A stretch of 64,000 nt of DNA from Escherichia coli (GCF_003334335.1 NZ_QOWQ01000018.1); one strand, 5' to 3'. Counted from the first letter of the stretch, positions 1 to 42,553 are shown. Program-made: numbers and translations. The notes: generated from the letters alone by a model not told the origin.

Positions 1-1716
1 GAACTGGCCTACGCTCTCTGGCCTGGTGATGTGGATGCCGGAAACATTGACGGCAGCATCCATCGCTGGGCAAAAAATGAAGTTATCGACAACGACCGCG
101 AAGACTGGAAGCGTATCTCGGCATCAATGCGCAAACAGCCTGAAGCACTTGGCTATGACCGTCAGACTATTTTTGGCCTTGTCCGTGAACGTCCGATCGA
201 CATTCACAAAGATCCCGTGGCGCTGAACAAATACATCACTGAATACCTGACTACAAAGGGCGTGTTTGAAGATGAAGGAACAAATCAGAGCACAACTAAT
301 ACTCTCCCGTCGCCAGTACCAGAAGCTGATGCAGTGGAAACGGCAATGCCGGACAACGAAAAAACCGAATGCAAAGTGGAAGTCGAACCATCTGTAGAGC
401 GTGAGGGGCCGTTCTACTTCCTCTTCACCGACAAGGATGGCGAAAAATACGGTCGCGCAAACAAACTTTCTGGTCTGGAAAAAGCACTAGCCTTGGGAGC
501 TACGGAAATCACAAAAGAGGAATACTTCGCACGTAAAAACGGCACGTACTCAGGTTCACAACAAAATACTGGTGCATCTGACACGACCGCACAACCAGAG
601 CCGGTAAAAGTTACCGCTGACGAAGTAAACAAAATTATGCAGGCAGCCAATATCAGCCAGCCTGACGCCGATAAGTTGCTTGCTGCCTCTCGCGGAGAAT
701 TTGTTGCAGGGATTAGCGACCCGAATGATCCGAAATGGGTAAAGGGGATTGAAACCCGCGATTCTGTAGACCAGAACCAGCAAGAATCGGAACAGAACGA
801 CCAGAAAGCGGAACAAAACAGCCCAAATGCGTTACAAAACGAGCCAGAAACGAAACAACCTGAACCAGTAGTGCAACAGGAACCGGAAAAGATCTGCACC
901 GCCTGCGGTCAGACCGGCGGCGGCAACTGCCCTGATTGTGGCGCGGTGATGGGCGACGCAACATACCAGGAAACATTCGATGAAGAGTATCAGGTTGAAG
1001 TTCAGGAAGATGATCCGGAGGAAATGGAAGGCGCTGAACATCCACACAAGGAGAATGCTGGCAGCGCTCAGGATCACGCCAGCGATAGTGAAACTGGCGA
1101 GACGGCAGATCCCTTAATTACGGTGAACGGTCATCACGTTATCACATCCACCAGCAGGTTGTGGCACCATCTGATGATTGACCTTGAAACAATGGGCAAA
1201 AATCCTGATGCGCCAATAAACTCTCTGGCCGGTAAGTTTTTTGATCCGGCAACCGGAGAGATGGGGCCAGAATTCAGCAAAACTATCGATCTGGAAACCG
1301 CAGGCGGAGTCATCGATCGGGACACCATTAAGTGGTGGCTGAAACAGTCACGGGAAGCACAATCAGCCATTCTGACCGATGAAATCCCGTTGGATGACGC
1401 ACTGTTGCAATTACGGGAATTTATCGACGAAAACTCCGGTGAATTTTTTGTTCAGGTCTGGGGAAATGGAGCCAACTTCGACAACGTGATTTTACGCCGT
1501 TCATATGAACGGCAGGAGATCCCCTGCCCGTGGCGTTACACCAATGATCGTGATGTAAGAACGATTGTTGCCCTGGGGCTGGTGATGGATTTCGATGCTC
1601 GAAGTGTCATCACATTTGAGGGTGAACGCCATAATGCCCTGCACGATGCGCGTTACCAGGCAAAATACGTTTCAGCTATCTGGCAAAAACTGTTCCCGAA
1701 TCAGGCTGATTTTTAA
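1..1716 (+). CDS. Prophage protein, 5'-partial (reading frame open from base 1), with a C-terminal DnaQ-like DEDDh 3'-5' exonuclease domain, a central CxxC-x7-CxxC zinc ribbon and an acidic/Gln-rich linker
   Basis: Frame 1 is open from position 1 to the stop at 1714-1716. Exo motifs are visible in the translation: MIDLETMG (Exo I), WGNGANFDNVIL (Exo II), HNALHDARYQAKY (Exo III). It sits directly upstream of xis-int as in lambdoid early-left regions. Confidence 0.6.
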   Translation, partial: ELAYALWPGDVDAGNIDGSIHRWAKNEVIDNDREDWKRISASMRKQPEALGYDRQTIFGLVRERPIDIHKDPVALNKYITEYLTTKGVFEDEGTNQSTTNTLPSPVPEADAVETAMPDNEKTECKVEVEPSVEREGPFYFLFTDKDGEKYGRANKLSGLEKALALGATEITKEEYFARKNGTYSGSQQNTGASDTTAQPEPVKVTADEVNKIMQAANISQPDADKLLAASRGEFVAGISDPNDPKWVKGIETRDSVDQNQQESEQNDQKAEQNSPNALQNEPETKQPEPVVQQEPEKICTACGQTGGGNCPDCGAVMGDATYQETFDEEYQVEVQEDDPEEMEGAEHPHKENAGSAQDHASDSETGETADPLITVNGHHVITSTSRLWHHLMIDLETMGKNPDAPINSLAGKFFDPATGEMGPEFSKTIDLETAGGVIDRDTIKWWLKQSREAQSAILTDEIPLDDALLQLREFIDENSGEFFVQVWGNGANFDNVILRRSYERQEIPCPWRYTNDRDVRTIVALGLVMDFDARSVITFEGERHNALHDARYQAKYVSAIWQKLFPNQADF

Positions 1717-1777
1717 TGTTCAACCGTCGCCGGTTGTAGTTGGTATTCTGCAACTGGCGCGTTCCGGAGTGATGGTC

Positions 1778-2047
1778 ATGAGCGAACAGTACCTGATTAC
1801 GCTCGACGAGTGGAAACCTAAGCGGTTCAGTCTCCCAATAACAAACACTACCCTGGTGAAATACGGAAAACTTGGATACATCGTACCAAGACCACAAAAA
1901 ATTCGTGGTCGCTGGCTAATAGATCGCCGCGCAGTCTTTGTTGGACCGGGTGAAGCTGGAATTGCGCCGGAAATTCATACTGGCGATGATGACGCACTGA
2001 AGGAGATTTTAACCCATGTCACCGAGGCCACGAAAAAACAGTACTGA
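1778..2047 (+). CDS. xis: Phage excisionase (Xis-like, small basic winged-helix protein)
   Basis: 89-aa ORF (MSEQYLITLDEWKPKRFSLP...RGRWLIDRRAVFV) immediately upstream of and overlapping int by 32 nt. GGAG lies 10 nt before the ATG at 1778. Start chosen within ORF 1595..2047. Confidence 0.6.
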   Translation: MSEQYLITLDEWKPKRFSLPITNTTLVKYGKLGYIVPRPQKIRGRWLIDRRAVFVGPGEAGIAPEIHTGDDDALKEILTHVTEATKKQY

Positions 2048-3134
2048 CGTAGCAGCTCTTTACGAAAAGTTTGATCGCAGAACTGGCAAGGTTTACTACC
2101 AGTATAAAAATCCTGTGACTGGAAAATTTCACGGACTTGGGACAGACAAAGTCAAGGCAGAAAAAATCGCTGCAACAGCCAATCAGCGAATAGCTGCAGC
2201 AGAAGCAGAATATTTCATGCGCAAAATTGATGAAAGTCCATCAGCAACAAAACGTCGGGGTATCAGATTAAAGGCATGGGTTGATCGATATCTGAAAATA
2301 CAGGATTCGCGACTGAAAAATGGAGACATTGCAGCTACAACCCACAAAGAAAAAGTGCGAATGGCTGCATACCTGGTTTCCCGCCTGGGAAACCACCCAT
2401 TGAAAGAACTGGAGGTAAGAGACTTTGCATTAATACTGGACGAGTGGATGGATAAAGACATGGTCAGCACAGCAAGAGTAAATCGCGGATTATGGGTTGA
2501 TATTTATAAAGAAGCACAGCATGCGGGAGAAGTTCCTCCTGGATGGAATCCTCCGAAGGCTACCCGTAAACCGATCCCTAAAGTGACCAGATCCAGACTC
2601 ACCCTGGAAGACTGGCAAAAAATTTATAATGCAACGCCAGAAAAACACTTTATCCGTAACGCAATGCTTCTTGCGATTGTTACTGGTCAGCGCCGTGATG
2701 ACATTTGCCACATGCGTTTTTCAGATGTATGGAATGGACATCTACATATAACCCAAGGAAAAACCGGAATGCGTCTGGCCTTACCTCTTACGCTACGATG
2801 CGATGAAATTGGGGTATCGTTAAAAGAAGTTATTGATGGATGCAGGGACAGAATGTTGAGTCCATACCTAATCCATAGTAGGCACCAGAAACAACCAAAA
2901 CCGATGAGTAAAGACAACCTGAGCGATTACTTCGCCAAAGCGCGAGATCTGGCTGGAATAATTCCACCAGCAGGAAAAACACCGCCAACATTTCATGAAC
3001 AACGCTCCCTGTCAGAACGGTTGTACCGCGCACAGGGTGTCGATACAAAAACATTACTGGGACATAAAGTCCAGGCTACCACCGATCGCTATAACGATAC
3101 TCGAGGTCAGGAATGGGTTAAGTTGGTTATTTGA
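2016..3134 (+). CDS. int: Lambda-family tyrosine integrase
   Basis: 372 aa; the C-terminus (PPTFHEQRSLSERLY...LLGHKVQATTDRYNDTRGQEWVKL) matches the lambda Int catalytic region (R..H-x-x-R..Y pattern). AGGAG RBS lies 10 nt upstream. Confidence 0.9.
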   Translation: MSPRPRKNSTDVAALYEKFDRRTGKVYYQYKNPVTGKFHGLGTDKVKAEKIAATANQRIAAAEAEYFMRKIDESPSATKRRGIRLKAWVDRYLKIQDSRLKNGDIAATTHKEKVRMAAYLVSRLGNHPLKELEVRDFALILDEWMDKDMVSTARVNRGLWVDIYKEAQHAGEVPPGWNPPKATRKPIPKVTRSRLTLEDWQKIYNATPEKHFIRNAMLLAIVTGQRRDDICHMRFSDVWNGHLHITQGKTGMRLALPLTLRCDEIGVSLKEVIDGCRDRMLSPYLIHSRHQKQPKPMSKDNLSDYFAKARDLAGIIPPAGKTPPTFHEQRSLSERLYRAQGVDTKTLLGHKVQATTDRYNDTRGQEWVKLVI

Positions 3135-3197
3135 CAAACACCATATGGAATATCCGTCACCATCTCAGGAAAAAAGTGTTGTAAAATGCGTGGCCTT

Positions 3198-3235
3198 GTT
3201 TTGGGGAAAAGTTTTGGAGAGATTTTGGAGAAAGG
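3198..3235. repeat. Three tandem direct repeats (core TTTTGGRGA) between int stop and the potB/potC junction; candidate Int arm-type binding sites
   Basis: gTTTTGGGGAaaa / gTTTTGGAGAg / aTTTTGGAGAaagg at 3199-3207, 3212-3220 and 3223-3231, read directly from the sequence. Confidence 0.5.
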
Positions 3236-3259
3236 AAAAAATTGAATAAATTCAAAATC

Positions 3260-3304
3260 CTGAAAGTGCTCCACCTTATGAATAAGAAGGTGGAACTCGA
3301 ATGA
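3260..3304 (+). other. Putative prophage attachment-site core overlapping the last potB codons (...NKKVELE-stop) and the potC start
   Basis: Frame-2 reading ends ...LMNKKVELE with TGA at 3302-3304 overlapping the potC ATG at 3301. Upstream of about 3280 the sequence is phage (int) rather than potB. Exact core limits are not determinable without a reference. Confidence 0.35.
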
Positions 3305-4095
3305 TCGGTCGACTGCTTCGCGGCGGTTTTATGACCGCTATCTACGCGTACCTGTATATCCCAATCATTATTTTGATTGTGAACTCCTTTAACAGCTCGC
3401 GCTTTGGCATCAACTGGCAGGGTTTTACCACCAAATGGTATAGCCTGCTGATGAACAACGACAGCCTGTTACAGGCAGCGCAGCATTCACTAACAATGGC
3501 GGTGTTTTCGGCGACGTTTGCTACGCTTATCGGTTCACTGACGGCAGTTGCGCTGTACCGTTATCGCTTTCGTGGTAAGCCGTTCGTTAGCGGAATGCTG
3601 TTTGTGGTGATGATGTCACCAGATATCGTGATGGCGATTTCGCTGCTGGTGCTGTTTATGCTGCTGGGTATTCAGCTTGGCTTCTGGTCGCTGCTGTTCT
3701 CGCATATCACCTTCTGCCTGCCATTTGTGGTGGTGACGGTGTATTCGCGCCTGAAAGGTTTTGACGTGCGAATGCTGGAAGCGGCGAAAGATCTCGGTGC
3801 CAGCGAATTTACCATTCTGCGAAAAATCATTCTGCCACTGGCAATGCCAGCGGTGGCGGCGGGCTGGGTGTTAAGCTTTACCCTGTCGATGGACGATGTG
3901 GTAGTTTCTTCGTTCGTCACCGGACCAAGTTATGAAATTCTGCCGTTAAAAATTTATTCGATGGTCAAAGTCGGCGTATCGCCGGAAGTTAACGCGCTGG
4001 CAACCATATTACTGGTGCTGTCGCTGGTGATGGTTATTGCCAGCCAGCTTATTGCTCGTGATAAAACGAAAGGTAACACAGGGGACGTTAAATGA
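3301..4095 (+). CDS. potC: Spermidine/putrescine ABC transporter permease PotC
   Basis: 264-aa ORF recognised as E. coli PotC; 4-nt overlap with potD. Confidence 0.95.
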   Translation: MIGRLLRGGFMTAIYAYLYIPIIILIVNSFNSSRFGINWQGFTTKWYSLLMNNDSLLQAAQHSLTMAVFSATFATLIGSLTAVALYRYRFRGKPFVSGMLFVVMMSPDIVMAISLLVLFMLLGIQLGFWSLLFSHITFCLPFVVVTVYSRLKGFDVRMLEAAKDLGASEFTILRKIILPLAMPAVAAGWVLSFTLSMDDVVVSSFVTGPSYEILPLKIYSMVKVGVSPEVNALATILLVLSLVMVIASQLIARDKTKGNTGDVK

Positions 4096-5138
4096 AAAAA
4101 TGGTCACGCCACCTGCTCGCGGCGGGTGCTCTGGCACTGGGCATGAGCGCCGCTCACGCCGATGACAACAACACGCTGTATTTCTACAACTGGACCGAGT
4201 ACGTGCCGCCAGGACTGCTTGAACAGTTCACCAAAGAAACCGGTATTAAGGTTATCTATTCGACTTACGAGTCGAACGAAACCATGTACGCCAAGCTGAA
4301 AACATACAAAGACGGTGCCTATGATCTGGTGGTTCCTTCAACCTATTACGTTGATAAAATGCGTAAAGAAGGGATGATCCAGAAGATCGACAAGTCGAAG
4401 TTAACAAACTTCAGCAATCTCGATCCAGACATGCTCAACAAGCCTTTTGACCCGAATAACGACTACTCCATTCCGTATATCTGGGGTGCGACGGCGATTG
4501 GTGTTAACGGTGATGCGGTGGATCCGAAATCTGTCACCAGCTGGGCCGATCTGTGGAAGCCAGAGTACAAAGGCAGCCTGCTGTTGACCGACGATGCCCG
4601 TGAAGTGTTCCAGATGGCGCTGCGTAAGCTGGGCTACTCCGGTAACACCACCGATCCGAAAGAGATTGAAGCTGCATATAACGAGCTGAAAAAACTGATG
4701 CCAAACGTGGCAGCCTTTAACTCCGATAACCCGGCGAACCCGTACATGGAAGGCGAAGTTAACCTCGGCATGATCTGGAACGGTTCTGCTTTCGTTGCAC
4801 GCCAGGCGGGTACGCCAATTGACGTGGTGTGGCCGAAAGAAGGCGGCATTTTCTGGATGGACAGCCTGGCGATCCCGGCAAATGCCAAAAACAAAGAAGG
4901 CGCGCTGAAATTGATCAACTTCCTGCTGCGCCCGGATGTGGCAAAACAGGTTGCTGAAACTATCGGTTATCCAACGCCAAACCTTGCGGCGCGTAAGCTG
5001 TTAAGTCCAGAAGTGGCGAACGATAAAACACTCTACCCGGATGCTGAAACCATTAAAAATGGCGAATGGCAGAATGACGTTGGCGCAGCCAGCAGCATTT
5101 ATGAAGAGTATTATCAGAAGCTGAAAGCAGGACGTTAA
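4092..5138 (+). CDS. potD: Spermidine/putrescine periplasmic binding protein PotD
   Basis: 348 aa with signal peptide; recognised as PotD. Confidence 0.95.
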   Translation: MKKWSRHLLAAGALALGMSAAHADDNNTLYFYNWTEYVPPGLLEQFTKETGIKVIYSTYESNETMYAKLKTYKDGAYDLVVPSTYYVDKMRKEGMIQKIDKSKLTNFSNLDPDMLNKPFDPNNDYSIPYIWGATAIGVNGDAVDPKSVTSWADLWKPEYKGSLLLTDDAREVFQMALRKLGYSGNTTDPKEIEAAYNELKKLMPNVAAFNSDNPANPYMEGEVNLGMIWNGSAFVARQAGTPIDVVWPKEGGIFWMDSLAIPANAKNKEGALKLINFLLRPDVAKQVAETIGYPTPNLAARKLLSPEVANDKTLYPDAETIKNGEWQNDVGAASSIYEEYYQKLKAGR

Positions 5139-7416: not shown

Positions 7417-8328
7417 TTAATCGGTTAGATGTAGGAAGGCCGCACCACGCATTCCTCCCGCATCACCGTGGCGCGCGCGTTCAATGCGCGGAACACGAGC
7501 TACAGGTAAGAGATGACGAGGCAGCCTGTCCGCCAGTTGCGTTGTGATTGCCGGGAAATTCGATAAGCCACCACCAATGACGACCAGGTCAGGGTCAACG
7601 ATGGTCAGGATATTTCCCAGACAAACCGCTAATAAATCCAGATAACGCTCAACGTGCGCCCTTGCCTGCTCATCGCCTTGATCATAAAGCGCAATAATTT
7701 CGGGAGCCTGCAACGGTTGATGATAATAGTGTTGATACAGCCACGCAAAACCGCGACCAGACAGATAATTTTCAATGCAGCCATGCTGACCACAGCCGCA
7801 GCGGCGTAACGGGAAATCCAACCCCATCATGGTTAACGCATCAACCGGCAGACGCATATGGCCAAACTCGCCGGTAATGTAGCTTTTACCGGTAATCGGT
7901 TTGCCGTTGAAAATCAGCCCGCCGCCAACACCGGTGCCGAGAATCAACCCCATCACCAGTGGATATTGAGTAAATTCATCATCCCAGGCTTCTGAAAGGG
8001 CAAAACAGTTGGCATCGTTATCAAGGCGTACATCGCGATCAAGACGTGCGCTCAGGTCGGCACGCAGCGGTTTACCGCTGGCAGCGGGGACATTGGCGGC
8101 ATACAGCGTACCATCTTCTGTTTCCGGCATTCCCGGAATACCGATGCCGACAGAACCTTTACAGCCAAAACGTTGGTCAGCTTCAGCTACCAGCTCACAC
8201 ACTGCATCTAAAAATGCGTCATAGCTGTCACGCGGTGTCGGCACCCGCTTTTCCCACTGCAACTGCCGACCGCTATCAAACACGCCAAGCGCAATTTTTG
8301 TTCCACCAATATCAAACCCGTAATACAT
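7417..8328 (-). CDS. nagK: N-acetyl-D-glucosamine kinase
   Basis: ROK-family sequence; start set at [11 protein letters not shown] within the longer ORF 7417..8388. Confidence 0.9.
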
Positions 8329-21800: not shown

Positions 21801-23641
<1,841 letters not shown>

Positions 23642-40163: not shown

Positions 40164-40332
40164 AAAGAAAAAGGCAGCCTGTGGTTGCCTTTTGCCAATA
40201 ATTCGCACACATTGCGGGTTACTGCTTTATTTTCGTTCAGTGCTGATAACAAACATCAACCTGCAAAACGAAGCGCATAGTTTAAAATGGCTATCATCAA
40301 TACGCTATATCTGATGGAAAAAAATATGCCTA
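40164..40332 (-). ncRNA. sraB: Candidate small RNA SraB (approximate limits)
   Basis: Minus-strand terminator (AGGCAACCACAGGCTGCCT then TTTTTCTTT) ending about 37 nt upstream of the yceD start. Placement from remembered K-12 coordinates. Confidence 0.4.
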
Positions 40333-42192: not shown

Positions 42193-42553
42193 GTTTCCGT
42201 GTCCATCCTTGTTAAAACAAGAAATTTTACGGAATAACCCATTTTGCCCGACCGATCATCCACGCAGCAATGGCGTAAGACGTATTGATCTTTCAGGCAG
42301 TTAGCGGGCTGCGGGTTGCAGTCCTTACCGGTAGATGGAAATATTTCTGGAGAGTAATACCCAGTCTGTTTCTTTGATAATTGCGCTGTTTTTCCGCATG
42401 AAAAACGGGCAACCGACACTCTGCGCCTCTTTGAGCTGACGATAACCGTGAGGTTGGCGACGCGACTAGACACGAGGCCATCGGTTCACACCCGGAAAGG
42501 CGTTACTTTGCCCGCAGCTTAGTCGTCAATGTAAGAATAATGAGTAAGTTACG
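42193..42553 (+). promoter_or_regulatory. rne 5' leader (autoregulatory untranslated region; approximate start)
   Basis: 572-bp divergent interval between rluC and rne; a long structured leader is known for rne. The 5' limit is not determinable by eye. Confidence 0.45.

Follow-up and report, generated by a model that had tools for sequence, protein, structure and literature searches.

The 3′ end of potB, where it adjoins potC, is a known integration site of Escherichia coli prophages. The potC gene is listed as an insertion site of Stx phages (PMC8065619), a 'Prophage 5 (potC)' has been described in O157:H7 (PMC10925052), a PP_potB prophage has been described (PMC9997748) and CFT073 is listed as carrying a 44-kb phi-potB (PMC3573123). 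The Stx2 phages at the potC site, including those of strains 00-3076 and EH41, have one integrase type, and it has already been stated that integration at this site splits the operon into potAB and potCD (PMC9453080). The site and the integrase module are thus already known, Stx2 phages included.

Here we analysed a 64,000-nt stretch of E. coli DNA (the window), of which bases 1–3304 almost certainly constitute the Int-proximal junction, equivalent to lambda attL, of a lambdoid prophage of this potB/potC-integrating group. A preliminary description had placed the Int-proximal end of a lambdoid prophage at the 3′ end of potB beside potC, and the genes, the junction and the arrangement in relatives all agree with this. 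The insertion point coincides to the nucleotide with that of the PP_potB, phi-potB and potC-site prophages (including Stx2a-1_00-3076 and Stx2d_EH41), with which the window also shares the xis–int type and the gene order exo–xis–int–potC. In contrast, its exonuclease allele is distinct, with a top identity of only 94.1% in a search of 5,426 complete genomes.

Phage genes and related prophages

Bases 1–3278 are phage DNA and comprise the 3′ part of an exonuclease gene, an excisionase gene, a lambda-type integrase gene and a 144-bp att arm; the three genes are those that the preliminary description had recognized upstream of potC. The last 561 codons of the exonuclease gene occupy 1–1716 on the plus strand and are open back to base 1, with the start upstream of the window. 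The ORF matches positions 263–823 of the 823 positions in PHROG 2082 ('exonuclease'), and ~260 N-terminal codons therefore lie upstream of the window. Residues 379–551 of the ORF form an Rv2179c-like 3′–5′ exoribonuclease domain (Pfam PF16473, E=2e-60), while the N-terminal part is RecE/exoVIII-like, its NCBIfam exoVIII match being partial and below the cutoff. This is a standard gene of the lambdoid early-left region. The excisionase gene xis (1778–2047, plus strand; 89 aa) matches PHROG 629 (excisionase, E=5e-26) and overlaps the start of int by 32 nt, and an excisionase is annotated at the equivalent position in relatives.

The integrase gene (2016–3134, plus strand) encodes a 372-aa tyrosine recombinase of the lambda type and is read in the direction of the att site and potC. 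Its N terminus carries an arm-binding domain (Pfam PF09003, Arm-DNA-bind_1, aa 1–64, E=1e-21), followed by a catalytic domain (Pfam PF00589, Phage_integrase, E=1e-18), and it aligns with lambda Int (PDB 1z1b) over nearly its full length, across residues 26–371 (E=2e-55). All six catalytic residues are kept: the motifs TGQR, KTG, HExR, GHK and the Y of DRY supply the equivalents of lambda R212, K235, H308/R311, H333 and Y342. The module is therefore like that of lambda in having an Int with an arm-binding N-terminal domain and an R-K-H-R-H-Y catalytic domain, an int gene read towards the adjoining att arm and an xis gene that overlaps int. However, the protein is just 44% identical to lambda Int, and an int gene at ≥99% identity to that of the window was found in only 5 complete genomes.

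The first 3.1 kb had also been described as AT-rich. The GC content of 1–3100 is indeed lower than that of the host part (48.3% versus 51.8%), and only 3 of 116 host segments of 3.1 kb are as low; yet the exonuclease part reaches 50.1%, and the dip stems almost wholly from int (45.0%) and the arm (36.8%).

The preliminary description had located the remainder of the prophage upstream of position 1, as borne out by near relatives with the same end. LZSFT34, SW070917 and 00-3076 share the exo–xis–int–potC end and carry lambdoid prophages of 44–46 kb with potB at the far end. Strains 00-3076 and EH41 are among the closest matches to the window, and the best match to bases 1–4200 among complete genomes is 96.1%. 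Among the 5,426 complete genomes, xis–int was found at 90–100% identity in 1,635, the int–arm–potC junction in 1,396 and the empty site in 3,800. The relatives display a full lambdoid gene set, with immunity, replication, Q, lysis, head and tail regions. In Stx-converting phages, stx lies between Q and the lysis cassette, a segment outside the window here. The prophage of 00-3076 carries stx2a, and no stx annotation was found in the fetched parts of LZSFT34 and SW070917.

By analogy with these relatives, the source genome probably carries a complete prophage. The window opens inside the exonuclease gene, however, and the prophage may instead be a decayed or cryptic remnant that has kept its int end while the rest was deleted or rearranged. 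Frequent deletion or replacement of PP_potB has been reported (PMC9997748; PMC7067040), the prophages of the relatives contain pseudogenes and IS insertions, and one genome (H114) retains the arm from approximately window position 3171 onwards without int. Against such decay, the exonuclease fragment, xis and int are open and full length relative to those of the relatives, and the att arm is likewise undamaged and retains its three repeats. We consider a remnant possible but unlikely; it is in any case compatible with a prophage junction at potB/potC and is no substitute for it.

Since the visible part is limited to int, xis and one gene of the recombination type, the module could in principle belong to a non-phage integrative element sharing the potB site, such as a satellite, a PICI or a genomic island, and close int relatives in the phage collection are limited to two prophage extractions with host potCD. 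Such an origin is highly improbable, as the exo–xis–int block is 92–96% identical to that of complete lambdoid prophages, a Stx2a phage among them, in which genes for terminase, portal, tail and lysis are present, and the exonuclease gene is of a type typical of lambdoid phages.

The junction with potC and the two ends of potB

We aligned the junction with that of K-12 MG1655, a comparison proposed in the preliminary description. Homology to K-12 starts at exactly base 3279, which is 22 nt ahead of the potC ATG, and from there to the end of the window (3279–64000) the alignment is gapless at 99.98% identity, with 11 SNPs. Both potC (3301–4095, plus strand) and potD (4092–5138, plus strand) are intact, and potC, K-12-like at this 99.98% identity, is set apart from potAB by the prophage. 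Beyond the junction, the rest of the 64-kb window, checked for other insertions, tRNAs and RNA families, is collinear with K-12; its sole Rfam matches are the rne 5′ UTR and SraB, both of which are expected.

The displaced original end of the host potB gene, consisting of the codons VELE and the stop TGA, occupies 3290–3304 on the plus strand, where the TGA overlaps the potC ATG. This segment is identical to K-12, and the body of potB is absent upstream of it. The frame that ends at 3304 reads KVLHLMNKKVELE followed by the stop, compared with a K-12 PotB terminus of WRASRLLNKKVELE followed by the stop; upstream of 3304 it is open from 3185 only, and there it consists of phage arm sequence.

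The preliminary description had taken NKKVELE-stop to be a replacement 3′ end of potB supplied by the phage. The codons directly before NKK do differ from those of PotB, as it had noted, and a substitute end is commonly carried by phages that integrate at the 3′ ends of genes. The codons before NKK belong to the phage att arm, however, and not to a replacement potB: the open frame begins only at 3185, inside the arm, and no potB body precedes it. Bases 3279–3304 are the same as in K-12 and are contiguous with potC, and so are host DNA. The phage-derived end of relatives is found at the opposite junction, where ATEIDD or VSELDD, rather than VELE, comes before the stop. A replacement end within the window is thus refuted by three-way junction alignments and, as a reading of this locus, retains only a minimal probability. 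Finally, the possibility that 1–3280 is simply a divergent potA/potB region lacking any insertion, which the preliminary description had named as a refutation of its own reading, can be dismissed outright, as the bases upstream of 3279 have no BLAST homology to K-12 potA/potB, no part of 1–3278 aligns with these genes, and the ORFs encode integrase, excisionase and exonuclease proteins.

A phage-supplied end of potB does exist, as the preliminary description had supposed, but at the opposite junction, outside the window, where it is seen only in relatives. In related lysogens, PotB at the far junction ends in LLNKK followed by ATEIDD or VSELDD and a stop, whereas K-12 PotB ends in LLNKKVELE, and the protein is annotated as intact in lysogens (287 aa). 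A 50-mer spanning the ATEIDD far junction was found in 99 genomes, compared with ~1,600 expected, indicating that the far arm has at least two diverged alleles.

Taken together with the genes present, this arrangement shows how the prophage most probably integrated. Its lambda-type Int recombined attP with a host attB lying within the final potB codons, with Xis as the helper for excision. In the window, potC accordingly keeps its ribosome-binding site together with VELE-stop, the final potB codons of the host, while at the far junction of relatives the phage contributes the last six codons of potB, ATEIDD or VSELDD, along with the stop. In the source genome, that junction would read potB up to CTGAATAAGAAGG, followed by the phage arm GCAACCGAAATAGATGATTAG or GTGAGCGAATTAGATGATTAA. 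The potABCD operon is thereby split into potAB and potCD, a consequence that the preliminary description did not mention.

The lambdoid elements e14 and phage 21 integrate in the 3′ end of icd and supply a substitute gene end. The potB site resembles these cases in that the target gene is kept open, with the phage arm giving its last codons and stop in relatives. In contrast to icd, just four host codons are swapped for six non-identical ones, the identity extends over 12–14 bp with no long duplicated 3′ segment, and the insertion cuts an operon (between potAB and potCD) and abolishes the potB–potC stop/start overlap.

The att core, candidate half-sites and arm repeats

Aligned three ways, the empty site of K-12 and the potB-side and potC-side junctions define a 12-bp common core, TGAATAAGAAGG, at 3279–3290. 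It is common to attP and attB, spans the potB codons (L)NKK and was found at both junctions in LZSFT34, SW070917, 00-3076 and 914033. The attB lies within coding sequence, at the 3′ end of potB, whereas that of lambda is the intergenic gal–bio site; the core length of 12 bp is a further difference from lambda. Within the searchable literature, we found no paper in which potB, potC and attB occur together, and no description of the att anatomy in comparable detail. No free phage with a matching attP was found in the phage collection, in which the only close int matches were vB_EcoS-640R1 and vB_EcoS-813R8. We rejected these two as a free-phage source of attP, as both are prophage extractions with host potC, potD, ymfA and ycfZ.

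A host polymorphism at core position 8 helps to place the crossover. The host allele AAA at this position is present in empty sites, for example that of BL21(DE3), and the lysogens LZSFT34 and ES5 have A on the potC side and G on the potB side, placing the exchange to the left of core position 8. On this mapping from two lysogens, strand exchange most likely occurs in the first 7 bp of the core, TGAATAA (3279–3285), which would constitute the overlap region.

Candidate core-type half-sites flank this putative overlap and may correspond to the inverted half-sites that surround a 7-bp overlap in lambda. The phage-side candidate, TCCACCTTA (3270–3278), forms an 8-nt perfect inverted repeat with 3287–3294, which falls within the host-side candidate, GAAGGTGGA (3286–3294), itself identical to K-12. 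The potC Shine-Dalgarno-like sequence AAGGTGG (3287–3293) sits inside the host-side half-site. The inverted pair TCCACCTT / AAGGTGGA flanks the putative crossover. Its phage half varies among other lysogens, in which the phage-side half-site is only partly kept (CCCGCCTT); apart from the window, SW070917 alone has the inverted repeat in perfect form. Any such inverted repeat arose in only 35 of 2,000 shuffles of the 221-bp region (1.75%).

The Int-proximal att arm, equivalent to the lambda P′ arm, comprises 144 bp of phage DNA without K-12 homology (3135–3278) and is ~98% conserved among the four lysogens compared. It contains three tandem TTTTGGRGA repeats on the plus strand (3199–3231, starting at 3199, 3212 and 3223), which lie ~55, ~66 and ~79 bp away from the overlap. 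These are the only three matches to TTTTGGRGA across the 64-kb window, all inside 33 bp, and they are invariant in the four lysogens. A fourth copy is found on the far arm of relatives, in the same orientation and ~130 bp from the overlap, and is kept between two far-arm alleles that are otherwise only ~60% identical. The repeats are probably arm-type sites for the N-terminal domain of Int, and Int would also bind the candidate half-sites.

The layout of three int-side repeats and one far-arm repeat presumably corresponds to that of P′1–P′3 and P1 in lambda, although the arm-site sequence itself, TTTTGGRGA, is unlike that of lambda. The far arm of relatives also contains one exact match to the IHF consensus and two with a single mismatch; the int-side arm has no match at ≤1 mismatch.

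Expression of potCD and implications of the junction

The split cuts potCD off from the potA promoter. A search for promoter-like sites in 1600–3400 returned none, and no terminator was found downstream of int. Between the int stop and potC we found neither a consensus sigma-70 promoter nor an intrinsic terminator, and a looser hexamer scan of 2900–3300 gave only weak matches (8–9 of 12) with odd spacers, from which we propose no promoter. The expression of potCD in lysogens may therefore depend solely on read-through from phage int. It is conceivable, although we think it rather doubtful, that potCD is transcribed in lysogens only by such read-through from the int region, in which case spermidine uptake by PotABCD would be shut down or tied to the regulatory state of the prophage in ~30% of E. 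coli strains. The split of the operon is already in print (PMC9453080), and it is this physiological consequence that would be new.

Literature searches on potCD expression in lysogens, combining potABCD and prophage, returned only irrelevant matches (work on Streptococcus and an rpoS study). A potCB change reported in lambda lysogens (PMC2147009) was set aside, as it concerns lambda at its own site and not a phage at the potB/potC site.

As a discovery the locus has small value, the site being a catalogued one for lambdoid and Stx phages and the integrase module occurring in ~30% of complete E. coli genomes. The att anatomy, with its 12-bp core, probable TGAATAA overlap, TTTTGGRGA repeats and two far-arm alleles, may help annotation and PCR design. 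The junction also signals a prophage upstream of the window, one whose cargo among close relatives at times includes stx2a.

Phage DNA abutting potC

BLAST of the whole window aligned positions 3279–64000 with K-12 MG1655 at 99.98% identity in two contiguous gapless alignments, with 11 scattered substitutions across this 60.7-kb host part, and found no alignment to K-12 MG1655 upstream of 3279. Positions 1–3278 are thus not collinear with potA/potB, and the claim of a prophage edge made in the preliminary description stands. Rfam matched only the SraB sRNA (40164–40332, − strand) and the RNase E 5' UTR element (42193–42529, + strand) in the whole window, both where K-12 has them, and no tRNA genes were found in the window.

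ORF listing and translation of the flagged interval gave, all on the + strand, an exonuclease ORF open from base 1 (1–1716), an 89-codon excisionase ORF (1778–2047; PHROG 629, E=5e-26), a 372-codon lambda-type integrase ORF (2016–3134; Pfam Arm-DNA-bind_1 and Phage_integrase), potC (3301–4095), which starts after a 166-bp gap behind int, and potD (4092–5138). The exonuclease C terminus carries an Rv2179c-like 3'-5' exoribonuclease domain (Pfam PF16473, E=2e-60), and the ORF matched profile positions 263–823 of 823 in PHROG 2082 ('exonuclease'), so that the window holds the last 561 of ~820 exonuclease codons. The integrase aligns nearly full length with lambda Int structures (residues 26–371, E=2e-55), is 44% identical to lambda Int and, in the alignment to the structures, keeps equivalents of lambda R212, K235, H308, R311, H333 and Y342. 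The earlier calls of integrase, excisionase, exonuclease and potC proved correct. The first 3.1 kb had also been described as AT-rich; this holds for int (45.0% GC) and for the int-side arm, the phage DNA between int and potC (3135–3278; 36.8%), but not for the exonuclease part (50.1%, with the host part at 51.8%), and the dip is limited to int and the arm.

Attachment core, probable crossover and candidate arm sites

For comparison, we retrieved lysogens with an exo-xis-int-potC end like that of the window. E. coli LZSFT34 is 96.1% identical across window positions 1–4200, and the xis-int of SW070917 is 99.9% identical to the window's; in LZSFT34, SW070917 and 00-3076, a 44–46 kb lambdoid prophage lies between potC and potA-potB. 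Both the element and its potB/potC site had been recognized correctly. When the junctions on the potB and potC sides were aligned with the empty site of K-12, a common core of 12 bp emerged, TGAATAAGAAGG (window 3279–3290). The potC-side junction, the one in the window, runs from the phage arm through the core and TGGAACTCGAATG... into host DNA, and the potB-side junction of the relatives from host potB through the core and CAACCGAAATAGATGATTAG... into phage DNA.

These layouts identify the NKKVELE-stop in the window as the host's own potB end, displaced. K-12 PotB ends ...WRASRLLNKKVELE-stop; the equivalent frame in the window reads ...KVLHLMNKKVELE-stop and is open only from 3185, and its TGA overlaps the potC ATG, as had been noted. 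The preliminary description took NKKVELE-stop for a phage replacement of the potB end; rather, the potC side in the window keeps host sequence. A phage-supplied end does exist, but at the opposite junction, on the potB side of the relatives, where PotB ends ...LLNKKATEIDD-stop. At window 3278–3304, the last arm base and the core make an ATG, giving a mini-ORF, MNKKVELE-stop, whose stop overlaps the potC start and which has no obvious ribosome-binding site ahead of it. This mini-ORF is probably incidental, although translational coupling to potC could be partly re-established through it.

The host has two alleles at core position 8, AAG and AAA (both lysine codons), and AAA is found in many empty sites, for example in BL21(DE3). 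In LZSFT34 and ES5, this base is A at the potC-side junction and G at the potB-side junction, the split expected if exchange took place left of core position 8. We infer that strand exchange would fall inside TGAATAA (3279–3285). This heptamer is flanked by TCCACCTTA (3270–3278, phage) and GAAGGTGGA (3286–3294, host), which contain a perfect 8-nt inverted repeat; when the 221-bp region was shuffled 2000 times, any such repeat arose in only 35 cases. In other lysogens, the phage half-site has a different sequence. The candidate 9+7+9 layout would mirror that of lambda core sites.

The motif TTTTGGRGA occurs three times in the 64-kb window, all within 33 bp (starts 3199, 3212 and 3223). The int-side arm is ~98% conserved among lysogens, and the three repeats are invariant. 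In an attP reconstructed from the window arm and the SW070917 far arm (the potB-side att arm, beyond the window), a fourth copy lies in the same orientation ~130 bp past the overlap, near an exact IHF consensus. These candidate arm repeats stand 55, 66 and 79 bp and ~130 bp from the overlap centre, a spacing that we take to resemble lambda P'1–P'3 and P1.

Far-arm alleles and consequences for potABCD

There are at least two diverged alleles of the potB-side att arm, with PotB tails ATEIDD-stop and, in strain 914033, VSELDD-stop (...LLNKKVSELDD-stop). The ATEIDD-junction 50-mer was found in only 99 complete genomes, versus ~1,600 with the integrase, indicating that the far arm is polymorphic. 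Among the arms compared (fetched loci L006 4243–4445, SW070917; L004 ~23035–23265, LZSFT34; L010 ~7715–7945, 914033), the two alleles are ~60% identical outside the conserved islands TTTTGGAGAA and AAAATCAA. The SW070917 arm also contains a perfect 14-bp hairpin, GGCATGCTTTTTAC-TTTTGC-GTAAAAAGCATGCC (L006 ~4306–4339), ~30 nt beyond the potB stop codon that the phage provides and kept in three lysogens; it has a T-run on neither strand and could act like a terminator or serve as a binding site for a protein.

After integration, potB is still open and ends in an altered tail of six residues, but potCD is parted from the potA promoter and the potB-potC stop/start overlap is lost. The Shine-Dalgarno-like AAGGTGG of potC (3287–3293) is retained because it sits in the core and host part. 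Scans of the stretch from the int stop to potC found neither a consensus promoter nor an intrinsic terminator, leaving read-through from the int region as the sole apparent source of potCD mRNA; on this sequence evidence, potCD would be transcribed from there. A literature search found no expression data for potCD in lysogens.

Frequency and relatives

The window feature is a prophage junction of an already known, very common kind. Across 5,426 complete E. coli genomes, 3,800 had an uninterrupted potB-potC junction, 1,396 the window-type int-arm-potC junction and 1,635 the window-type xis-int. Stx-phage insertion sites include potC (PMC8065619), O157:H7 has a 'prophage 5 (potC)' (PMC10925052), a 'PP_potB' has been described (PMC9997748) and CFT073 is listed with a 44-kb 'phi-potB' island (PMC3573123). 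Strains 00-3076 and EH41, named for potC-site Stx2 phages (PMC9453080), rank among the window's nearest matches (H5 and H18). The source genome is closely related to K-12 and has a prophage mosaic absent from the complete-genome set. Its exonuclease allele (window 1–1740) reached at best 94.1% identity across the 5,426 genomes, and xis-int was found at ≥99% identity in only 5.

Relatives of this prophage end include Shiga-toxin phages, as also reported (PMC9453080), with stx2a in some close relatives. In 00-3076, stx2a lies inside the prophage; three tRNA genes and the stx2a A and B subunits are found downstream of an antiterminator (L011 18559–20141). For the LZSFT34 and SW070917 prophages, the annotation of the regions retrieved lists no stx genes. 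Just inside the potB-side arm lies a small YkgJ-family cysteine-cluster gene (L006 4440–4742, L004 22711–23040, L009 22483–22812); being co-directional with potAB, it may receive read-through from the potA promoter and could be moron-like cargo. The far end of the SW070917 prophage (L006 5195–11302) carries a 4-kb S6-family peptidase of the serine-protease autotransporter type beside the att site, together with a protein that has a YadA domain at its C terminus; LZSFT34 has neither at the corresponding position. An IS4 transposase lies directly upstream of the SW070917 exonuclease gene (L005 16076–17422). Strain 2000-3039 (H114, NZ_CP101302.1 2219927–2220335) matches the window only from ~3171 on, over the att arm with its three repeats and potC, with int not annotated beneath; this junction looks like a remnant after int loss.
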